Below, piece after piece: positions 20,338-45,823 of a stretch of 47,119 nucleotides of DNA. The notes below the pieces were generated by a model. The model was not told the origin of the DNA. It was given only the letters and a program-made list of their open reading frames with translations, and did no database searches. Every line of letters starts with the position of its first letter. The stretch's first letter is position 1. This DNA is from a virus (taxonomy: Duplodnaviria; Caudoviricetes). The stretch spans positions 1-47,119 of the IMG/VR virus record IMGVR_UViG_3300044267_003966; one strand, 5' to 3'. A program made the translations under genes and the position numbers.

Positions 20338-20348
20338 ATTTTCCCCTA

Positions 20349-20448
20349 TTATAGCTATATATATTATAGCAATACTATTTATAGCTATATATATTATAGC
20401 AATACTAATATAGCAAAAAGAAAAACTATTAAGATAAAAAAAGAAAAA
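20349..20448. repeat. TATAGC array A (5 boxes, 15/15/15/14 bp spacing) plus A-tract
   Basis: TATAGC at 20350, 20365, 20380, 20395, 20409; exact 29-bp repeat at 20349-20377 and 20379-20407. Confidence 0.9.
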
Positions 20449-21927: not shown

Positions 21928-22110
21928 TTATATAAATATTATATTATTATTTATTGAATAATTTTCTTTTTTAATTGCTTCCATTGTATTTATAGCATCT
22001 TTTTTACAGTCTGTATAATATGTTTTATTTGCATCTATTACACCATTTAAAAACCATTGTACAACATATTCATTATCAATTTTTTTAATAGTTAATTTTA
22101 CTTTATTCAT
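21928..22110 (-). CDS. Early hypothetical protein
   Basis: First gene after the leftward promoter; EYVV..YYTDCKKDA. Confidence 0.75.
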   Translation of the reverse strand: MNKVKLTIKKIDNEYVVQWFLNGVIDANKTYYTDCKKDAINTMEAIKKENYSINNNIIFI

Positions 22111-22151
22111 AAATTTAAGTCCTTATTTTATTTTAATTAAATTCAATAATT

Positions 22152-22179
22152 AATTTAATACTTTTTTTATTAATGTCAA
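22152..22179 (-). promoter_or_regulatory. Leftward early sigma70 promoter
   Basis: TTGACA-N16-TAAATT. Confidence 0.75.
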
Positions 22180-22218
22180 TAAGTTTATTTATTTTTATTA
22201 TTTTTATTATTTTTATTA

Positions 22219-22247
22219 TTGACAACTTTTAAATATCAATTTAAATT
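22219..22247 (+). promoter_or_regulatory. Rightward early sigma70 promoter
   Basis: TTGACA-N17-TAAATT with AT-rich UP-like region. Confidence 0.8.
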
Positions 22248-22309
22248 AAGTATCAATTTTTAAGTAATTAAATAACTAATAAGCAATAACAAAAAAAGGA
22301 AGAAAATTT

Positions 22310-22549
22310 ATGAATAAAGCATATTTTATTTACTATTTTAAAAAGAATCATAGAGTACATAAAAACAAGCTATCTTATTTAGATTTAGTTAAGATGCTAG
22401 AATTAAATAAAAAGAACGATAAAAAAGGAGAACCATATATTAAGGCTCACACATATCAACTTCAATGGATGCAAGAATTTTTACTAAATAATAAAGAACT
22501 TCAAATCTTTAAATGTAATGTCTGTATAGATAATCAAGTAATATTATAA
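22310..22549 (+). CDS. Early hypothetical protein
   Basis: First ORF after the rightward promoter. Confidence 0.7.
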   Translation: MNKAYFIYYFKKNHRVHKNKLSYLDLVKMLELNKKNDKKGEPYIKAHTYQLQWMQEFLLNNKELQIFKCNVCIDNQVIL

Positions 22550-22570
22550 TAAATAATAAAAGGGGAGTTT

Positions 22571-23206
22571 ATGAATAAAAAAGAAATGTTGAAAATTATT
22601 GGGGGGATGTCTAAGACTTCTAAATTACCTTGTTCTAGCTTTAATTTATCTGCTTGGAGGTGTAATAATGGAAGCAAGTTAGCTAAAATTAAAGGCTCTG
22701 TATGTGATGGATGCTATGCAATGACTGGCTTTTATAATATGTTTAAAAAGAAGCATGAAGAAAACCATGATAGAAAATTAAACAATTATTACAAAGATAC
22801 AAATTTATGGGTTAACACTTTTTCAAGCTATTTAAATAAGTATGAAAAATCAAGCTATTTTAGGTGGTTTGATAGTGGGGATATACCTTCATATGATTTT
22901 TTACTAAACATCGTTAAAATAGCTAAAAAAACCCCAAATATTAAACATTGGCTACCTACCAAAGAATATAAACTAATCAATAAATTTTACAAGCAAGGTA
23001 ATTCAGTACCTTCCAATCTAGTTATTAGAGTATCAGCACCTATGATTGATACAGAAATAAATGGATATCCAAATACATCTTCAGTAACTAAAAATAGTAC
23101 AACAAATAGTATTGTATGCAATGCACCTAAACAAGATAACCAATGCAAAGATTGTAGATTATGTTGGAACAAAGATATCAAGAATATAGCCTATAAATAC
23201 CACTAA
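22571..23206 (+). CDS. Gp88-like (radical-SAM-related, Cys-rich) protein
   Basis: C..GSKLAKIKGSVCDGCYA, FRWFDSGD, HWLPTKE, NLVIRVS, C..CRLCW. Confidence 0.85.
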   Translation: MNKKEMLKIIGGMSKTSKLPCSSFNLSAWRCNNGSKLAKIKGSVCDGCYAMTGFYNMFKKKHEENHDRKLNNYYKDTNLWVNTFSSYLNKYEKSSYFRWFDSGDIPSYDFLLNIVKIAKKTPNIKHWLPTKEYKLINKFYKQGNSVPSNLVIRVSAPMIDTEINGYPNTSSVTKNSTTNSIVCNAPKQDNQCKDCRLCWNKDIKNIAYKYH

Positions 23207-23223
23207 ATAAGGGGATTAAAATA

Positions 23224-23391
23224 ATGAATAAAGAAATGAATGTTTTAACTAGTAGATCAAAATTAATAAATAATTGTGAATCGTGTAAAATGACAAAAGA
23301 ATCTTTTTCGGCTACACATTGTGATAAATGCTCAGATAGAATTGATACTTGGATTCTTCATTTTATGGAATTAGAACAAGGGGGTAAATAA
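23224..23391 (+). CDS. Small Zn-finger-like protein, 55 aa (not in ORF track)
   Basis: MNKEMNVLTSRSKLINNCESC..HCDKC.. Confidence 0.6.
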   Translation: MNKEMNVLTSRSKLINNCESCKMTKESFSATHCDKCSDRIDTWILHFMELEQGGK

Positions 23392-23634
23392 ATGAATGTT
23401 TTAACGAATAGATCAAAATTAATAAATATTTTATGTAATGCTATTAATGAAGGTAATAAAAGTCTAGAAAAAAAAGCTATAAAAATAATGGGAGAGCAGA
23501 ATAAAAAACTACTTTCAAATCATAATGGTATTAAAAAACATCAGAAATTTAAATCAGGATTAGAAGGTTTAAGTAATAAAGATCGATCTAGATTTTTAAA
23601 TAATAGAAGAAATCATTCAAACAATAATAAATAA
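23392..23634 (+). CDS. Basic hypothetical protein
   Basis: GGGGG RBS; N-terminus duplicated in the upstream ORF. Confidence 0.65.
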   Translation: MNVLTNRSKLINILCNAINEGNKSLEKKAIKIMGEQNKKLLSNHNGIKKHQKFKSGLEGLSNKDRSRFLNNRRNHSNNNK

Positions 23635-23652
23635 AAATTATAGGATTAAATA

Positions 23653-24519
23653 ATGTATAAAGAATGTAAAAAATGGAAAGGGTTTGAAGATATAGAAAAA
23701 ATAAAAAATTCTATTAAAGACAATACAAGACAAGTAATAATTAGAGGTACTGTATATAATGTAGAGAATGCCCCAAAATCATATATAAATCACTTTGCAG
23801 TATATAAGTCTGGTAAAGTTTTAAGAAGATGGATAGATAAATTATTTTACCATAATTATAGGTATACACAGAAAGGAGAAGAACTAAAAGAGAAGAAAAA
23901 AATTAGATATTGGGAAAATCCTCAAAAAGAACTAGACAAAAATAATAAATGGAGAAAATCCCCTAAAGGAATTAAATATTTTAACAAACTTTCAGAAGAA
24001 AAAAAGGCTATAACCTCTCAAAAGAAAAAAGATTTTTTAGCCTACAAAAATAGTACAAAAGGAATTGCTGATGCACTAGAAAAAAAGAAGATTATTACAG
24101 AGAAAAAAAGAATTGCAGACTTAGAGAGATACCACAAAAATCCAATCCCATTTAATTTAAAAAGATTATTACTGCATTGTGTTACTAATAATATTAATGG
24201 TAAGTCATGGAATAATAGTAATGAAATTATTAACTACAAAAAATGCATAAATAAGCTTAAAGACCTTGCAAAAATCAATAAAATGACAATCAAGGAAATA
24301 AAAAAGAAGGGTTACCATATAGATCATATTATACCTGTTGCATCGTATGATACAAACGATCCAAAGGAATTAAAAAAATGCTTCTCATATCATAATTTGC
24401 AATGGTTACCACCTAGAGAAAATATCCAAAAAAGCGATAAAATTATCAAAAGTTTAATTAAACCACTACCAACAAAGATATATCCAAAGTCTTGGAATAA
24501 TAAAATAATAGGAGAATAA
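23653..24519 (+). CDS. HNH endonuclease (possible free-standing homing endonuclease)
   Basis: HIDHIIP...CFSYHNLQWL...ENIQKSDK; Lys-rich N-terminus. Confidence 0.85.
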   Translation: MYKECKKWKGFEDIEKIKNSIKDNTRQVIIRGTVYNVENAPKSYINHFAVYKSGKVLRRWIDKLFYHNYRYTQKGEELKEKKKIRYWENPQKELDKNNKWRKSPKGIKYFNKLSEEKKAITSQKKKDFLAYKNSTKGIADALEKKKIITEKKRIADLERYHKNPIPFNLKRLLLHCVTNNINGKSWNNSNEIINYKKCINKLKDLAKINKMTIKEIKKKGYHIDHIIPVASYDTNDPKELKKCFSYHNLQWLPPRENIQKSDKIIKSLIKPLPTKIYPKSWNNKIIGE

Positions 24520-26276
24520 ATGAATCCAAAAATATATGTATTAATACTTAAAGATAAAGAATATTACCCTGAAGGAAAAGCACTAGGCATAGCATATGAA
24601 AAAGATATGGAAGAAATTATACATACAAACGATTTAGATGACCATGTATACCATTATGTATGGGAGAAAGAAATTGACCTAGAAAAGCTAAAAAAAGGCG
24701 ATAAAATAATGCTAGATGTTGAATTTGAAGTAATAGAAAATAAAGGGAGCATAGATGAATAAACAAGAGGAATGGAAAATAACAAAATTTTGGGATACTA
24801 TAATGCTTGATAATGGAGAATATGGAGAAGGATGGAATTATGAAGCTGGATACCACATAGGAGATGATGTTATATATGAAGATTATTTTGAAACTAGGAA
24901 AGAAGCTGAATTATATATTGAAAAAATGAAAAAGGAGATGAATAAATGAAAGTATATACAGTATATGCAGTATTTTACACTTATGAAAATAATCACGAGT
25001 TTGAAGCCATCACAACAGATTTTGATAAATGGCTAGATTCACACAACAGAAGAAGAAAGCAAGATGGTAATGAACCAGAAAATGAATATGATTTTACAAT
25101 ATACGAAGGTGAAATAAAAATAAAGGAGAATGAATAAATGAATAAGAAAATAGTAAACCAAATAGATAGACTTATAAAACATAATGAAACAATCCTAGAA
25201 GACTTATATGGAAAGTTCTTAGTGAAGGAAGATGGTATACATTTTATGGAAAGTGAACAATCTGCTTATGCTAGGTCAATTGGATGGGTAGATGCTTTAA
25301 GATGGGTATTAAATACTATGAAAAATGGTAGTCCAGTATCAGATAAACCATTAAACAATAGAGGAGATGGGTAAATGAAAAATTATTATGTAGAAGTTAA
25401 AGTAAAATGGGCGACATCTTTTGAAGCTAAAAACAAAAAAGAGTTTATAGAAAATCTAAAAGATCAATTTAAACAAGATTATAACATATGTCTAAGTGAT
25501 GATGAAATTGGAGATATACATACAAACAATAGAGGAGATGGGTAAATGAAAATAGATGAAATGAAGTATATGTGTGTTAATTGTGGTGGTGGTTTCAGCA
25601 GAGAAGATATGTGCTTTGATACTGACTATGATTGTGATTTCTGTCAAGATTGTTATGATCGTGCAATCAATAAAGAGGAGATGAGTAAATGAATATAACA
25701 AGCATAGGTATAACTCTAATATCAATACTAATAGCAATAGCACTTGTAGTAGCAATAGTATCAGCAATTTTATATATACTGATGGTTATTCACTCTTGGA
25801 TTGAAACTAAAAAATGGAGGTGGTAATATGAAAATAGATAAAAAGCTAGAAAAATTAAAAGAAGATATAAATAGTTACCATGATATAGTATCTGATTTAA
25901 GGGATGTATATAGTGATTTAAATGGTATTCTTGATTGTGAAGATGAGAGAGAGAATGATATATTGGAATCTGTTCTTGGGATTGTAGATGGGTTTGAAGA
26001 GTATATTTTTGAATCAGTAAATAAAATAGATAAAATAAAGGAGATGAATAAATGATGAAAGTAACCAATGTAAGATACTATACAACAAGAAGAGGTGTTG
26101 GATATGAAGCTACAACAGATACTGATAATACTATATGGAATGATGGTAGTGGTGGAGATACCTATCTAACAAACAAAGATGGTGGATATTATCATCAGTT
26201 CAATGGCCTTATGGGAATGGAATTAGAAAGCTATTTAGAATCTTTAATTGACAAATATGAGGGGGTTACAAGATGA
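24520..26276 (+). other. Array of tiny, translationally coupled early genes (24520-24762, 24755-24949, 24946-25137, 25138-25374, 25375-25545, 25546-25692, 25689-25826, 25828-26055, 26052-26276)
   Basis: Contiguous ORFs joined by AGGAG..TAAATG/ATGA junctions; three found by hand translation. Confidence 0.8.
25353..25552 (+). repeat. Exact 29-bp direct repeat flanking one 171-bp gene unit
   Basis: AAACAATAGAGGAGATGGGTAAATGAAAA at 25353-25381 and 25524-25552. Confidence 0.95.
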
Positions 26277-29411: not shown

Positions 29412-30202
29412 TGAAAATATCAAAAAAGATAGAAGAAATATATCATGATTTTATTGAATCTGAGAACGATAAGAATGTCGAGGAGAGATACTCAGGGAAA
29501 AAGCAGTACTATCATATTAGTGCTGTTGGGATGTGTAGTCGTAGGCTGTATTTTGAATCTATAGATCAAATTAAACCAACAAATAAACCAAATGAGAGAT
29601 CATCGAGAATAATGCGACTAGGAAGTTTAGTGCATGAAGATATTCAAAATGCCCTCTCTATATATAGCAATAATACTTATAGCAATAATACTTATAGCGA
29701 TGATATTTATAGCAAAGAAAAAAAATATTTAGATATAAAAAAAAGAAATCCAAAGCTATTTAGTATTGAAAGAGAGGTTATTGTTGACGACTTAAACATA
29801 AGAGGTTTTTATGATTTGGTTGTTCATAGCGAAGGGGTTCATTTGATTGACTTTAAAACTATTGCATCATGGCCTTACAAAAAAAAGTTTGGAAGAAATC
29901 CTGTAATGGATAATTCTAACCACCATGAGTTGCAAGTTGCTAGTTATGGATTAGGAGTTATCAAAGAATTTGGGAGGTTGGATAGTATGAGTCTATGTTA
30001 CTACAACAAAGACAATTCAAGGCTTAAATTTCATCCAATTTCAATGATGTATCTTGATCAGGCTAAGACTTACTGGGAGCAAATAAACGAAGAACATAAA
30101 CGAGGATTACCATCATTTAAAATGGGTACATCACCTAAGGCAGAATGGGTATGTAACTACTGCTCATTTGCTGATCATTGTGGTAGTCCTTACAAAAAAT
30201 AG
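29408..30202 (+). CDS. Cas4-like PD-(D/E)XK exonuclease
   Basis: SAVGMC..R, GSLVHE, E..RGFYD..LIDFKT, QVASY, C-terminal CNYCSFADHC (Fe-S-type Cys set). Confidence 0.9.
   Translation: MMKISKKIEEIYHDFIESENDKNVEERYSGKKQYYHISAVGMCSRRLYFESIDQIKPTNKPNERSSRIMRLGSLVHEDIQNALSIYSNNTYSNNTYSDDIYSKEKKYLDIKKRNPKLFSIEREVIVDDLNIRGFYDLVVHSEGVHLIDFKTIASWPYKKKFGRNPVMDNSNHHELQVASYGLGVIKEFGRLDSMSLCYYNKDNSRLKFHPISMMYLDQAKTYWEQINEEHKRGLPSFKMGTSPKAEWVCNYCSFADHCGSPYKK
29663..29748. repeat. TATAGC array B (4 boxes, 15 bp spacing) plus A-tract inside the exonuclease gene
   Basis: TATAGC at 29663, 29678, 29693, 29708; encodes YSNNT-YSNNT-YSDDI-YSKEKK. Confidence 0.9.
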
Positions 30203-30211
30203 AGGTATAAT

Positions 30212-30820
30212 ATGTCAATTAGAGCTGAATTAAAATTTAAGAATGGAGTTTTTATGTCTGCTTTAGAGAGGATAGGATATAAATCAGTTGCAGAGTATGG
30301 AAGAGAAACAGGAATTAGTTATAGCACTCTCATACCTTATGCTAATTTATATTCAGTACCACAAGACCCTAAAGTGAGAAAAAAAATGATTGAAACTTTA
30401 TTTGAAGATGAATATACATTATTCGTTCAATTTGAAGAAGTCATAGATGCAAAGAAAAAGATGCCTAAATTAACGAGAAGTATTCCAATAGATCAGTTTG
30501 TAGAACTAGGCAGTACAGAACTGTTAAAATTAGAATCTGATGATATAGTAGATGAATATATTGACGATGAGTCTTTAAAAGAAGATATTAAAGATTCAAT
30601 GTCCACTCTAAAAGATAGAGAGAGGCAGGTTCTGAAAATGTACTTTGGGTTGGAAGGGGAAAAGCCTCTAGATTTAAATGAAATAGCCAAGATATTTAAA
30701 TTAAAGAGAGAAAGGATTAGACAGATAAAAGAAAAAGCAATAAGAAGATTAAGGCATAAGTCAAGGTCTACTAATTTAAAAAAATATCCAGCCTCATATG
30801 TTATGATGGAAGATAGATAA
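30212..30820 (+). CDS. HTH plus sigma70 region-4 protein (no region 2)
   Basis: C-terminal LKDRERQVLKMYFGL..LNEIAKIF..RERIRQIKEKAIRRLRH; N-terminal SVAEYGRETGISYSTL HTH. Confidence 0.85.
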   Translation: MSIRAELKFKNGVFMSALERIGYKSVAEYGRETGISYSTLIPYANLYSVPQDPKVRKKMIETLFEDEYTLFVQFEEVIDAKKKMPKLTRSIPIDQFVELGSTELLKLESDDIVDEYIDDESLKEDIKDSMSTLKDRERQVLKMYFGLEGEKPLDLNEIAKIFKLKRERIRQIKEKAIRRLRHKSRSTNLKKYPASYVMMEDR

Positions 30821-30846: not shown

Positions 30847-31239
30847 ATGAACATGAGAGATTTATTCAACAAGTATTCATTCCTTTCTAAAAGTGAAGGG
30901 GTGGACTTTTGGAAGTGTCATAACAGCTACATATTAACTCATGATGCTGTTACTAAGATAGCAAACTATGAACAGATAGAAATGGTAAGCATAGAGTCTA
31001 TTTTAAGCACTGATACAAATGTTAGATTCCTGATAACTATGAAGGATAGAAAAGGAAAGCAAGTAACAACAGTTGGCGAGGCAAGTAAGATAAATTGTAA
31101 GAATGTATACTATGGAGCAATGGCTGAGAAGAGGGGCATAGATAGAGCAGTCCTTAAATTAATTAATGCCTATGAGTATGGTGTATATTCAGAAGTAGAA
31201 GCAGATGATTTTAAAAATACAACAGAGGAGAAAAAATAA
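30847..31239 (+). CDS. Putative ssDNA-annealing/recombination protein
   Basis: GEAS..N..YYGAMAEKRGIDRAVLKL..VYSEVEADDF; between exonuclease and SSB. Confidence 0.55.
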   Translation: MNMRDLFNKYSFLSKSEGVDFWKCHNSYILTHDAVTKIANYEQIEMVSIESILSTDTNVRFLITMKDRKGKQVTTVGEASKINCKNVYYGAMAEKRGIDRAVLKLINAYEYGVYSEVEADDFKNTTEEKK

Positions 31240-31859
31240 TGAATGAACAAATGTTAAACGATGCAATAAATACACCAAGTGTCAATAAAGAAGGAAAATC
31301 TAAATATCCTGAATGGATTCCAATGGTAGAAGGTGAGCATTTTGGCCATATAGTTAAAGCTGATACCAGGAAAGTAACATGGGAGAAAGAAGGCATTGAT
31401 TATGAAGCTACAGTGTATAATTTCTTTGTAGAGATATCACCTGAAAATGCACAAAATAAATTTACCTACCAAAAAGATGGTGTAGATCAACATGTAGATG
31501 GTTCATCTTATGCAGGGAAGAAGATAAAAGCTAAAGGTATCTTTAGAATAACAAAACCTACTAATGATGCTAATGCACAATACATAAGATTTTGTGATGA
31601 TCTAGGCCTTTCACTTACAGATAAAAAGGCAATTGTTGATGGGAAGGAAGTTATGATAAAAGAGTTGCCTGAATTGACTACTGACTTTATGGAAGGTAAA
31701 CCTGTAATTGCTGTCATTAAGGAAGGAAAACCTTGGACTAACAAAGATGGAGATCAGAAAAAAGGTTGGGAAGTTAAGTTTATTAAGGCATGGACTAATG
31801 GTAAACAAAAACAAGTTGTTGCTGAGAAACCTGTCAGCGATGACGATCTTCCTTTTTAA
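31239..31859 (+). CDS. Single-stranded DNA-binding protein
   Basis: Acidic C-terminal tip DDDLPF; OB-like beta content. Confidence 0.75.
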   Translation: MNEQMLNDAINTPSVNKEGKSKYPEWIPMVEGEHFGHIVKADTRKVTWEKEGIDYEATVYNFFVEISPENAQNKFTYQKDGVDQHVDGSSYAGKKIKAKGIFRITKPTNDANAQYIRFCDDLGLSLTDKKAIVDGKEVMIKELPELTTDFMEGKPVIAVIKEGKPWTNKDGDQKKGWEVKFIKAWTNGKQKQVVAEKPVSDDDLPF

Positions 31860-31993
31860 TGAAAGCTAAAGTGACACCAATCAAGGCAATGTTTATAAGG
31901 CTCTTGGTTCACCTTTTTAAGAGAAATCCTATAAAGGTTGCTAAGATGTTTAAAATATCAAGAGCCACAATATATAGGCACTTAAAGAAATAA
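31859..31993 (+). CDS. Small HTH protein, 44 aa (not in ORF track)
   Basis: KVAKMFKISRATIYRHLK, resolvase-type HTH; TAATG coupling to SSB. Confidence 0.75.
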   Translation: MKAKVTPIKAMFIRLLVHLFKRNPIKVAKMFKISRATIYRHLKK

Positions 31994-32167
31994 TGCAGAC
32001 AAACAAACAGCACATCAGCACATTACAGCTAGGAGCTTCGTGTGTAATGATGAACAACATAAACAATTAGCACTTTATTAAGTGCTTTTTGCAAGGGATT
32101 AGAATTGAGTGGCTGAAAGTTGCACTAGGTTTCGGTTGAGACAGCATAAAAACTTCAGTCTGCATTA
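31991..32167 (+). ncRNA. Candidate structured RNA 1
   Basis: 10-bp closing stem TAATGCAGAC/GTCTGCATTA enclosing at least three hairpins. Confidence 0.5.
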
Positions 32168-32188
32168 GATTTGATGATGTATAGGGAA

Positions 32189-32286
32189 ATGCTAGGGTAT
32201 GTAGGTTTTAGAGTCTGGTTAACTCTATGGTCTTTATTCATGACCATCCTTATTTCCTGCTTGCTGAGGAATCAGCACCCTAGCAT
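32189..32286 (+). ncRNA. Candidate structured RNA 2
   Basis: 10-bp closing stem ATGCTAGGGT/ACCCTAGCAT, nested multi-branch fold, GGAA tetraloop hairpin. Confidence 0.55.
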
Positions 32287-32301
32287 AAATTTAGGAGGAG
32301 T

Positions 32302-32490
32302 ATGAGAAAGCCAGGACAAGTAACATATAAAGATAGAGTTAAAAATATCAGAGAGTGTAACATATGCAGTAAAAAAGAAACTGAAGTTGAGTTTTATTTG
32401 AGATATAGAACAATATGCAAGAAGTGTCATAACAATCAATCTAAAAATAGGTATGCAAAGAATAAAAAGAAAATGAGGGGGTATTGGTAA
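32302..32490 (+). CDS. Zn-finger basic protein
   Basis: CNIC...EFY...CKKC; AGGAGG RBS. Confidence 0.75.
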   Translation: MRKPGQVTYKDRVKNIRECNICSKKETEVEFYLRYRTICKKCHNNQSKNRYAKNKKKMRGYW

Positions 32491-32795
32491 TGAAGCATGA
32501 GGTTATGTGTAAAAGGATAGAAAGTATATTTATGCAAGTCTTAAAGACTCACAAAGAGGGGCAGAAAGAGTATGCAAGAAATACTGATGATGTCTTTGCT
32601 AACTTTAAAAGGGTTGCTGACTTTGCTGATATCAGTAAAGAAAAAGCTGCTTTAACATATCTTATTAAGCATATAGATGGTATATCTGCTTATGTTAATG
32701 GCCACAGATCTCAAAGGGAAGGTGTTAGAGGCAGGCTAACTGATGCTATTACCTATCTATGCATACTCTGGGGGATGTTTGATGAAGTCGAATAA
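32484..32795 (+). CDS. Nucleotide-modification-associated domain (DUF1599/MazG-like) protein
   Basis: KEYA..DVFANF, YLIKH, GRLTDAITYLCIL. Confidence 0.65.
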   Translation: MVMKHEVMCKRIESIFMQVLKTHKEGQKEYARNTDDVFANFKRVADFADISKEKAALTYLIKHIDGISAYVNGHRSQREGVRGRLTDAITYLCILWGMFDEVE

Positions 32796-33042
32796 ACTTA
32801 AAGATATGATATGCGAGTATAACGAAGAATCTTTACTTGCTGATGGATTTGATGATGCTGTTATAGGTATGGTAGATGGTTTTGCCGAAAACCCTGTTGT
32901 TTTATATGATAAGGATAAATGTATAGAAATACTTTGTAAAGAGATGCCTATAGAGGAAGCAGTTGAATATTTTAATTTTAATATAATGGGAGCATATGTA
33001 GGAGAGAATACACCTAAATTTGCTGTCTTATTTAACAAATAA
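32782..33042 (+). CDS. Conserved phage hypothetical protein
   Basis: LLADGFDDAVIG..EEAVEYFNFNIMGAYVGENTP. Confidence 0.8.
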   Translation: MKSNKLKDMICEYNEESLLADGFDDAVIGMVDGFAENPVVLYDKDKCIEILCKEMPIEEAVEYFNFNIMGAYVGENTPKFAVLFNK

Positions 33043-33044
33043 AC

Positions 33045-33113
33045 TATGGGTAGTTCATCAAGCCAAAAATCTTCCTTAATTACACCTAAAGATAAAAAGG
33101 TGTTCTACCCATA
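33045..33113 (+). ncRNA. Candidate structured element 3
   Basis: 9-bp stem TATGGGTAG/CTACCCATA enclosing an ACACCT/AGGTGT hairpin. Confidence 0.4.
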
Positions 33114-33121
33114 AAGATTTA

Positions 33122-33634
33122 ATGAAAAAAACACCAGAACAAAAAATAAAGGAGTATTTTAATATGGATTATCAACAATCGTTTTCAGAAAGGATAAAGC
33201 TGTCCCCTGCAGAAGATCAGCTTGAGATTCACTACAACTCAAAACCTAATACTAAAATTCATAAATTTGGATTTGATGCAACAAATGATAGACTACCTGC
33301 AAAGTTTTTCTTTAAAATAAATCCATTTATAAGGAATAGGCCTGACTATATAGCAATAGATAAAAAGGCTTACTTTTTAGAAGCTAAAGGTTGCAGGGAT
33401 ATTGCTAAATTTAAAATTGATGATTTGAAGTCTTATGCTAAGTGGAGTGAGTTTATGCCTCTTAGTTTTTTTGTCTTCAGTACAACATTTCAGAAAACTG
33501 TACAATTCTCAATTCATCAGTTGAGAACATTGATATCAAAAAAAGATTATAAAATTGAAAGGTATGATGATAATAATAAAGAATATTATCCTGTTCCATT
33601 TAAAGATTTATTAGCACTTAACAAGTTAAAATAA
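33122..33634 (+). CDS. PD-(D/E)XK-family nuclease-like protein
   Basis: RPDYIA....FLEAKG. Confidence 0.65.
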   Translation: MKKTPEQKIKEYFNMDYQQSFSERIKLSPAEDQLEIHYNSKPNTKIHKFGFDATNDRLPAKFFFKINPFIRNRPDYIAIDKKAYFLEAKGCRDIAKFKIDDLKSYAKWSEFMPLSFFVFSTTFQKTVQFSIHQLRTLISKKDYKIERYDDNNKEYYPVPFKDLLALNKLK

Positions 33635-44662: not shown

Positions 44663-45823
44663 TTATGAGCCAGATTGGGTTTTAGTTACCTGCCAATGAC
44701 CATCCCCTGTTGAGCCTATCCATTTAGCCTTAATATTCCAATTTTTGGTATTGTATCCTACATTATTTCTAACTTCGCCAACTGTTTGTGCAGTGAAATT
44801 CACCTCTTCCCCTTCAAATCCTTTCCATAAAGGAATAAAAGCAGAATCTTCACCCATATAACCAGTAACTCCTACAACTCCTCCAGGAGTAGGGGTAGTG
44901 TGAACAAGCCATTTACCATCAGAACTTGCATCTGTTCTCATCCTTAAATCCATATTATCACTAATCTTTGATCGAGCCCATTTAGAATCAAGATAATCTT
45001 GCTGGTTAGCATAACCCATAGGAACATCACCCTGAAGTCCTTTCTCTTCATCCATTCTAATTACTTGTAAAGCATTGTTATACTCTGACTCACTTATTTG
45101 ACCTAGATCATATAGCTTCTTCATCTCAGATGCTATGCTATACTCTTTTTGAGCTGCAAGTGTATCTTTAGCAAGCCCAAACTGTTTTTGTGCAAGACCT
45201 GTCTCAAATTCTCTTTGAGATTCGCTAATTCCCTGTCTATAGCCAGCCCTTCTTCTTCCACTGACAAGGCCTTGACCTTTAAAAGCTTGTTCGTCTGATG
45301 CTGTTAAACCTTCCAATATAGTGCCTCTCTGCTCCTGCCCTAAAGCCCCTACATCAAACCCATACTGTGTCTGCAATTGCTGCTCTTTTGTAGGATCATA
45401 TAGATTGATATTACTTTGAGTCTTACGAATCAAGTCATCACTAAAACCTAATCGTGTTAAATAATCAGCAACATCTGTTCTGGTTTCAGGATTAAATCCA
45501 GCACTTGAAGTATCAAAACCAAATCCTGTATCACCTCCAATACCTTGATCCATAACAGTAGCTGTTGCTCCCTCTCCTAACTGACCTGCTGTTATTTCAG
45601 TTTCAGAGGTAGAGCCTTGTTCACCATATACAATAGATTGAGCTCCAGGAACCTCAGATCCAGGAGTTATCATTCCAGTTTGACCTATAAGACCCATCGC
45701 TATTGTTTGAAACTCTTGATGCTTTTCTTGTGGAAGGTCTGGGTGCTGTTCAAGAAGTAGCTGAACATCATTAATACTGAATTGTCCATCTTCATTTACA
45801 TCATAAAATTTTAAAGTAGCCAT
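44663..45823 (-). CDS. Putative internal virion protein with N-terminal dockerin/EF-hand-like motif
   Basis: YDVNEDGQFSINDVQLLL; Q/G-rich helical middle. Confidence 0.6.
   Translation of the reverse strand: MATLKFYDVNEDGQFSINDVQLLLEQHPDLPQEKHQEFQTIAMGLIGQTGMITPGSEVPGAQSIVYGEQGSTSETEITAGQLGEGATATVMDQGIGGDTGFGFDTSSAGFNPETRTDVADYLTRLGFSDDLIRKTQSNINLYDPTKEQQLQTQYGFDVGALGQEQRGTILEGLTASDEQAFKGQGLVSGRRRAGYRQGISESQREFETGLAQKQFGLAKDTLAAQKEYSIASEMKKLYDLGQISESEYNNALQVIRMDEEKGLQGDVPMGYANQQDYLDSKWARSKISDNMDLRMRTDASSDGKWLVHTTPTPGGVVGVTGYMGEDSAFIPLWKGFEGEEVNFTAQTVGEVRNNVGYNTKNWNIKAKWIGSTGDGHWQVTKTQSGS

Follow-up and report, generated by a model that had tools for sequence, protein, structure and literature searches.

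Most work on the small RNAs of phages comes from a handful of laboratory hosts. The described RNAs closest to the element reported here are C4 of phages P1 and P7 (RF01695) and c4-2 (RF02944), which resemble it in size, phage origin, and paired ends (accessible part of PMC5320573). In the same part of that source, RNase P excises C4 from a longer transcript, and C4 acts through two loops, one of which occludes a ribosome-binding site; RNase P release and two-loop recognition also appear in the accessible part of PMC12197685. RsaE, as described in the available portion of PMC6158497, displays unpaired anti-Shine-Dalgarno (anti-SD) motifs, one in a loop and one between stems. The STAXI motif (RF01728) is a pseudoknot repeated near ssb and other DNA-handling genes (PMC2864571, as far as accessible).

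The element to be compared with these RNAs, cassette 2, is a 98-nt fold located in the window, i.e., the whole 47,119-nt stretch of DNA analyzed here, which is a complete virus record with direct terminal repeats and a GC content of 33.6%. For cassette 2, as for C4 in the partly accessible sources above, release from a longer transcript is predicted, as are two unpaired candidate recognition sites, one facing a ribosome-binding site. It differs from C4 in having five helices and a nested junction, whereas C4 consists of three stem-loops with a′ and b′ loops, and in lacking a 5′ GG at the closing helix and a 3′ CCA; neither an antirepressor nor a matching target pair was identified, and cassette 2 lies in a replication module. 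The RF01695 and RF02944 models matched none of five records at E ≤ 10, and a C4-type test for targets among the phages' own messages gave matches in two of seven records and none in five, several of the records being incomplete. Cassette 2 shares with RsaE/RoxS a segment, UCCUU, that is predicted to be unpaired and complementary to Shine-Dalgarno (SD) regions. In contrast to RsaE/RoxS, which are chromosomal RNAs of Firmicutes with duplicated CCCCUU, it is phage-borne, lacks CCCCUU, combines UCCUU with an anti-start loop, and has neither an identified promoter or terminator of its own nor an Rfam match. Cassette 2 may work like C4 or RsaE while being, on these comparisons, a member of neither family.

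In the searched literature, represented mostly by records short of the full text, neither of the two motifs reported here is described, and PMC5737381 is unrelated in its accessible part. According to its accessible part, PMC10690425 reports 8495 candidate RNAs from IMG/VR; the motif terms are absent from its searched supplements, and since its alignments and one table lay outside the search, either motif may be an unnamed entry.

Fold and conservation of cassette 2

Cassette 2 and its flanking genes comprise the following features.

31239..31859, plus strand: SSB-like gene, 206 aa, with an acidic DDDLPF tail
31859..31993, plus strand: HTH open reading frame (ORF), 44 aa, its stop codon overlapping the first arm of cassette 1 (see below)
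32189..32286, plus strand: cassette 2, the flagged element, defined by folding and homologue alignment
32189-32198/32277-32286, plus strand: closing helix P1, 10 bp
32201-32205/32256-32260, plus strand: inner helix P2, from the fold
32209-32227, plus strand: hairpin A, from the fold
32215..32221, plus strand: loop A, CUGGUUA, invariant among the four five-helix homologues and beginning with a YUNR motif
32228-32246, plus strand: hairpin B, from the fold
32233..32241, plus strand: loop B, YUUAUUCAU, the reverse complement of AUG AAU AAR
32247..32255, plus strand: junction strand UCCUUAUUU, the reverse complement of an AAAUAAGGA Shine-Dalgarno region
32263-32276, plus strand: side hairpin, abutting the 3′ strand of P1
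32302..32490, plus strand: Cys-rich ORF, 62 aa, directly 3′ of the element, with a weak match to the N terminus of an HNH family

The element is single-copy in the window and lies in a 308-nt gap of a recombination-replication module, between the SSB-like gene and the HTH ORF on the 5′ side and the Cys-rich ORF on the 3′ side. Three features make the 206-aa protein probably SSB-like, namely, the acidic tail, the position, and a DUF669 lead present in 13% of one cluster; the protein has no Pfam, PHROG, or PDB match and no solved relative by sequence. The HTH matches of the 44-aa ORF are weak and below the Pfam cutoffs, and homologues of this ORF lie 5′ of the slot described below in most related loci; the gene located 3′ of cassette 2 varies among homologues. 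In seven loci (L168, L169, L171, L173, L178, L180, and L182), the HTH frame extends back over the SSB-like stop codon, which we attribute to an overlap rather than to a frameshift because an AUG occurs within the acidic-tail codons (L168 and L173).

Elsewhere, the window encodes a terminase, a portal protein, a major head protein, an endolysin, a PD-(D/E)XK exonuclease, DnaB, and a resolvase. The terminase displays less than 60% identity to all 814 matching phage records (25 to 27.5% in the 15 listed). Parts of the region from 31200 to 33200 were present in 20 of the 24 listed sequencing runs, all 20 from seawater or marine plankton, and ten of these runs are possible sources of the DNA. In place of the sigma-70 region 4 gene (30212-30820), L003 has an unrelated 72-aa ORF, and in two DNA runs read joints bypass this gene, pointing to a variable slot. 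The exonuclease contains a short imperfect NNTYS peptide repeat at about 29665-29700 (two copies in the window and four in L003), and a short, imperfect, duplicated AT-rich block is located at about 20340-20410, 5′ of the small terminase gene. Six small genes (22110-25138) flank a divergent AT-rich gap (22111-22309, 11% GC); all begin with AUGAAUAA, and several have AAAUAAGGA-like SD regions.

The first-pass annotation of this DNA had proposed a perfect 10-bp closing helix, an inner helix, two hairpins, and a side hairpin within 98 nt, and all five were recovered at the proposed place. They form both the minimum-energy and the centroid fold (−35.8 kcal/mol; z = −4.33; none of 200 shuffles as stable), in agreement with the folding z-score check suggested at that stage, and cassette 2 has the lowest energy among 3359 plus-strand 98-nt windows sampled at a step of 14. 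The gap had been described as GC enriched, and it is (39.1% for the whole gap and 41.8% for the element versus 33.6% for the genome). The two hairpins had been drawn as TAGAGT/ACTCTA and ATGGTC/GACCAT, each of 6 bp; both hairpins exist, but they share A32227, so that only one can have 6 bp at a time. UGGUUA of loop A (32216-32221) could instead pair with UGACCA (32241-32246) on the 3′ side of hairpin B. The stack of P1 on the abutting 5-bp side hairpin resembles the top half of a tRNA, without a T loop or CCA, and this geometry is suggestive of RNase P release at the base of the closing helix.

Folding energy cannot designate the transcribed strand, since the minus strand folds about equally well (z = −4.74). 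The plus strand is favored by the presence of three G-U and no A-C combinations in 117 aligned cells, together with the direction of the flanking genes. The first-pass annotation had argued for the same strand from a G-U pair and a GNRA loop; the former argument holds, but the GNRA loop is absent in two of four homologues. The side loop is GGAA in the window, GACG in L003, GUGA in L139, and ACUU in L020, indicating that GNRA is not required. Loop A, which begins with what we take to be a U-turn motif, is predicted to be unpaired with a probability of 0.95 to 0.98, loop B with 0.96 to 0.99, and UCCUU with 0.87 to 0.99 (six homologues for UCCUU). The spacing between CAU and UCCUU is 5 to 8 nt.

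Three homologues (L003, L139, and L020) retain all five helices. L003, whose SSB-like protein is 81% identical to that of the window, keeps the block with one two-sided change in the side hairpin and replacement of the P2 G-U by A-U. L020 was found by synteny rather than by motif; its SSB-like protein is only 36% identical, and its 98-nt element, located after the HTH stop codon, adopts the same five-helix fold (z = −3.72), rewrites most of the helices, and keeps all three unpaired segments. A model built from three close sequences scored L020 at E = 6e-7 (78 sources). The L139 variant was added by a metagenome scan and retrieved by the conserved unpaired motifs, so it is not independent for their conservation. 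Pairing is retained in 116 of the 117 aligned cells of these four sequences, with two-sided changes in 15 of the 30 pairs. None of 500 shuffles and none of the slid controls reached this count, which leans on one distant sequence aligned by fitting to the model and is inflated by register slips in hairpins A and B. The covariation proposed as a check among homologues 3′ of the SSB-like gene was thus observed. The segments CUGGUUA, YUUAUUCAU, and UCCUUAU are kept unpaired in all four sequences, and there is no conserved peptide over the element on either strand. The cassette 2 fold is real and conserved.

The loop pattern used in the searches led to three true elements among 20 viral loci and five among 32 metagenome loci. 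Among 80 loci of the neighboring 130-aa gene, only the window's own copy, that of L003, and L020 were syntenic. Model R1 gave four matches in 78 sources, and 47 module X loci (see below) yielded no credible match; annotated phage records provided only five short matches attributable to chance. Despite an apparent relatedness, L220 and L221 were left out of the count because of the possible pairing of their GGUUA. A joint alignment of the inner domains was of too poor quality to be modeled.

The proposal that the element is neither a tRNA nor a recognized ribozyme also held: ARAGORN found no tRNA or tmRNA gene, and the side loop is of 4 nt and variable, versus 7 nt for a T loop. The Rfam search gave no gathering hit for the whole window, only chance matches for 31800-32500 and L192, and nothing at E ≤ 1 in eight cassette loci. 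Among Rfam ribozyme models, the only match was a chance Hatchet match inside the HTH ORF (14.9 bits versus a cutoff of 51). A tmRNA tag, group II domain 5, a group I core, twister, and pistol were considered and rejected because they are not conserved in L003 or lack key pairs. A type I toxin-antitoxin system was also rejected, since the minus-strand AUG AAU AAR frames vary in frame and length (window, L003, L020, and L199) and are not hydrophobic. Covariation, the lack of Rfam and tRNA matches, and the lack of a conserved peptide together support the view of the element as an uncataloged structured phage RNA.

Cassette 1, module X, and a recurrent genomic slot

The element as first delimited is real, but the conserved noncoding block reaches 31991 and includes a further cassette that had been missed.

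31991..32167, plus strand: cassette 1, not flagged earlier, with a perfect 10-bp closing helix (31991-32000/32158-32167)
32108..32157, plus strand: module X, a predicted H-type pseudoknot within cassette 1
32108-32113 with 32122-32126, plus strand: stem 1 of module X, with one bulged G
32114-32121 with 32151-32157, plus strand: stem 2 of module X, with one bulged A
32129-32142, plus strand: optional hairpin inserted in module X, whose connector is A-rich
33045..33113, plus strand: third helix-closed element, in a later gap, with a 9-bp closing helix and an interior containing UUCAU and UCCUUA

Cassettes 1 and 2 are arranged in tandem behind the SSB-like gene and the small HTH gene. The interior of cassette 1 consists of variable hairpins (32005-32102) followed by the pseudoknot module; its closing repeat is identical in L003 and L139, whereas the enclosed 32005-32102 segment differs. 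The flagged 98 nt form a unit of their own, since L020 lacks cassette 1. L222 has the cassette 1 interior of the window within another closing helix and between other flanking genes, and G008 contains three consecutive helix-closed cassettes separated by AU-rich spacers, two arrangements suggesting that interiors have been exchanged between phages. The gap holding the third element (33045-33113) is absent in L003. A first pattern for cassette 1 matched 13 loci, and the matches were real only in the two phages already known.

A scan for the SSB family retrieved 40 loci, of which 28, many of them close kin, remained after removal of five duplicates, one truncated locus, and six weak C-terminal matches. 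In 25 of these 28 loci, no more than 25 nt separate the HTH or SSB stop codon from the start of a helix of at least 9 bp (with at most two G-U pairs); the number expected from shuffles is 2.2. The interiors differ, ranging from plain hairpins to 190-nt multibranch folds, and Rfam gave no gathering hit in 20 SSB-family loci.

Since this long helix is the sole feature common to the slot, and several relatives have only a plain hairpin, the cassettes might act in cis within the mRNA without ever being free RNAs, either as processing or stabilizing structures (sites of the RNase III or P type) or as a switch at the ribosome-binding site of the next gene. The SD site of that gene lies about 6 nt behind P1, and the downstream start ties for first rank among candidate targets in G005. 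The corresponding start ranks only 24th of 136 in the window, 23rd of 120 in G002, and 41st of 135 in G001, the downstream genes differ among homologues, and invariant loop letters would be needless for a cleavage or stability signal. We consider a purely cis-acting role unlikely, even though module X is found on the coding strand in all of its 41 distinct contexts, as this role would predict.

Other cassette types were observed in related loci. A recurrent cassette with a GAGAGAG/CUCUCUC closing helix is present in L151, L207, L212, and L221 (G008, about 45640-45745), with a common 5′ interior and a variable insert. Cassettes of another family, marked by CGCUUC and UCCGCA segments, occur in L151-L157, L212, and L237; that of L155 is nested at the insert position of module X. 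In L172, L177, L179, and L181, long hairpins with a conserved apical UGUAAUGUCAA...AGUUUAG directly follow the SSB-like stop codon, with no HTH ORF. GGAG in or near hairpin loops recurs in cassette 1-type interiors (window 32015-32050, L139, L161, L191, L195, and L218); these hairpins presumably are CsrA-site-like or SD-like.

The module X pattern, with one free position per side, matched 49 viral loci (L190-L238). The free pair is Watson-Crick in all 49, all four forms being represented, in comparison to 2 of the 13 chance matches found in bacterial and archaeal genomes; a host lead drawn from 13 bacterial-genome matches was abandoned, as these look like chance. In the second stem, three positions left unconstrained pair in 37, 37, and 29 of 37 distinct contexts, and none of 2000 shuffles scored as high. 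Since the two stems cross, an H-type pseudoknot is predicted. Module X is apparently virus-restricted, judging from its distribution among the genomes scanned, and is present in one copy per record in the nine records checked; the invariance of its core is partly built into the search pattern.

The preQ1-I riboswitch (RF00522) is likewise a compact H-type pseudoknot with an A-rich connector. In comparison to this topologically similar RNA, module X has a longer second stem, is buried in a cassette, and precedes varied genes; the preQ1-I model did not match module X in five records or L192, its weak matches elsewhere remaining below the cutoff. STAXI is repeated two- to threefold in Enterobacteriales, whereas module X is single, and the STAXI model matched none of five records.

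Cleavage of the operon message by a new self-cleaving ribozyme in one cassette could also be considered, since the predicted pseudoknot of module X is compact, bulged, and strongly conserved. Small ribozymes are associated with phage recombination genes, an association that our literature search did not retrieve. No ribozyme family matches, and the conserved letters of cassette 2 are located in separate loops rather than in a junction core, which makes this the least probable of the alternatives. Scarcely more credible is a single-stranded DNA fold used as a replication or priming signal beside the SSB-like gene. The recombination-replication setting, the lack of an identified polymerase or primase among 39 window proteins scanned, and the consideration of such a role for the SSB-associated STAXI motif (accessible part of PMC2864571) are consistent with it. 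G-U changes are tolerated, however, several cassettes occur in tandem, and the interiors of relatives differ widely. Moreover, module X is oriented with the coding strand throughout, and no more than 11 of its 41 contexts have an SSB-like tail in the 600 nt upstream.

Possible antisense activity of cassette 2

The conserved unpaired letters of cassette 2 are complementary to AUG and AAGGA, and among the possible functions they point most to an antisense regulator. Our preferred reading, to which we assign a probability of about 0.4, is that cassette 2 is a processed trans-acting antisense RNA in which the CAU loop and the UCCUU linker pair with the start codon and the SD site of a message. This RNA would likely be transcribed within the phage replication operon. 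A free RNA would need to be processed, since the region 31700-32500 has no identified sigma-70 promoter and the single plus-strand terminator-like site is located inside the SSB-like gene, with none in the gap. Host nucleases would probably release it, cutting either in the flanks, which are AU-rich, or at the base of the stack formed by P1 and the side hairpin. Loop B, the candidate anti-start-codon seed, would then pair with the AUG of the target mRNA and the junction UCCUU, the candidate anti-SD seed, with its SD site; pairing at both sites would block translation in trans, and loop A could provide a third contact. The implied target starts have the form AAUAAGGA-N5-9-AUGAAUAAR and would more likely belong to a host or competitor mRNA than to the phage itself.

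Cousins of the module retain parts of this arrangement. In L199, whose module directly follows an unrelated SSB-type gene, loop B is unchanged but carried by another stem, and UCCUU keeps its place. L206 and L229, whose minimum-energy structures fold differently, combine other CAU-ending loops with UCCUU; L194 is similar but has CUAU instead of CAU. Hairpin A is absent in all four, and L199, L206, and L229 were selected with CAU and CCUU in mind. A scan based on shape only, in 194 redundant sources, gave 104 matches, of which nine had a CAU loop, all nine with a CCU linker; two shuffled sets (75 and 77 matches) contained none with both. These nine matches represent only four groups and had been seen before the shape was drawn. 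Among 21 slot cassettes, unpaired CAU was mildly more common than in shuffles (10 versus 5.7), and anti-SD letters were not enriched in the other slot cassettes (4 of 21 versus 7.1 expected).

Searches for targets were mostly unsuccessful. Within 2 points of the maximum, 11 possible starts of the window match its own module, one of them perfectly (22110, minus strand), and six do so in G002, compared to zero to four in eight other records. The modules of G001, G005, G006, G007, and G008 match none of their own starts within this limit. Starts with AUGAAUAA are not clearly enriched (6 of 136 in the window, 1 of 135 in G001, 3 of 119 in G002, and 1 of 39 in G005, for a background of 41 of 1658). 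Nested co-folding, which cannot model two-loop kissing, did not rank the best-matching starts first, and no partner of loop A was found near a matching start. RNA run X20 contains a small share of words from the window; its single exact contig (31363-31519) lies in the SSB-like gene, and the absence of a contig over cassette 2 in this one run is evidence neither way. The five of seven records that have no match of their own, together with the weak AUGAAUAA and co-folding results, contribute to the probability assigned above.

The largely failed target searches are better accommodated if the cassettes are protein- or ligand-binding decoys, whose conserved loops or pocket would present a shape, such as the pocket of the pseudoknot or a 7-nt loop resembling an anticodon, to a toxin, a nuclease or RNA-binding protein of the host, or a signal molecule. 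The core of module X, identical with its two bulges over the 49 viral loci, has no obvious antisense reading, interiors appear to be swapped between cassettes and gene contexts, and loop A is invariant whereas loop B varies, all of which argue for decoys. We nevertheless regard this explanation as rather doubtful: no ligand or protein was identified, ARAGORN finds no tRNA, and cassette 2 carries anti-AUG and anti-SD segments at a fitting distance.

RNA cassettes of marine phages

Cassette 2, which is not cataloged in Rfam, belongs to a larger group of exchangeable RNA cassettes found in marine phages. The locus yields two uncataloged RNA motifs with real covariation, both modules being of less than 100 nt, and a recurrent genomic slot in which marine phages keep exchangeable structured RNAs. 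A more speculative view, which we think unlikely to hold in all its parts, is that a large set of uncultured marine phages possesses an RNA toolkit of arrayed helix-closed cassettes cut from the replication message, with interiors shuffled between phages like moron genes, comprising a module that clamps start codons and SD sites of selected host messages through retargetable loops and a virus-restricted pseudoknot that binds a host defense protein or signal molecule. If cassettes were decoys, the pseudoknot would be a candidate RNA counter-defense. If the antisense reading of cassette 2 is true, these phages would clamp translation starts at two points through loops that can be retargeted.
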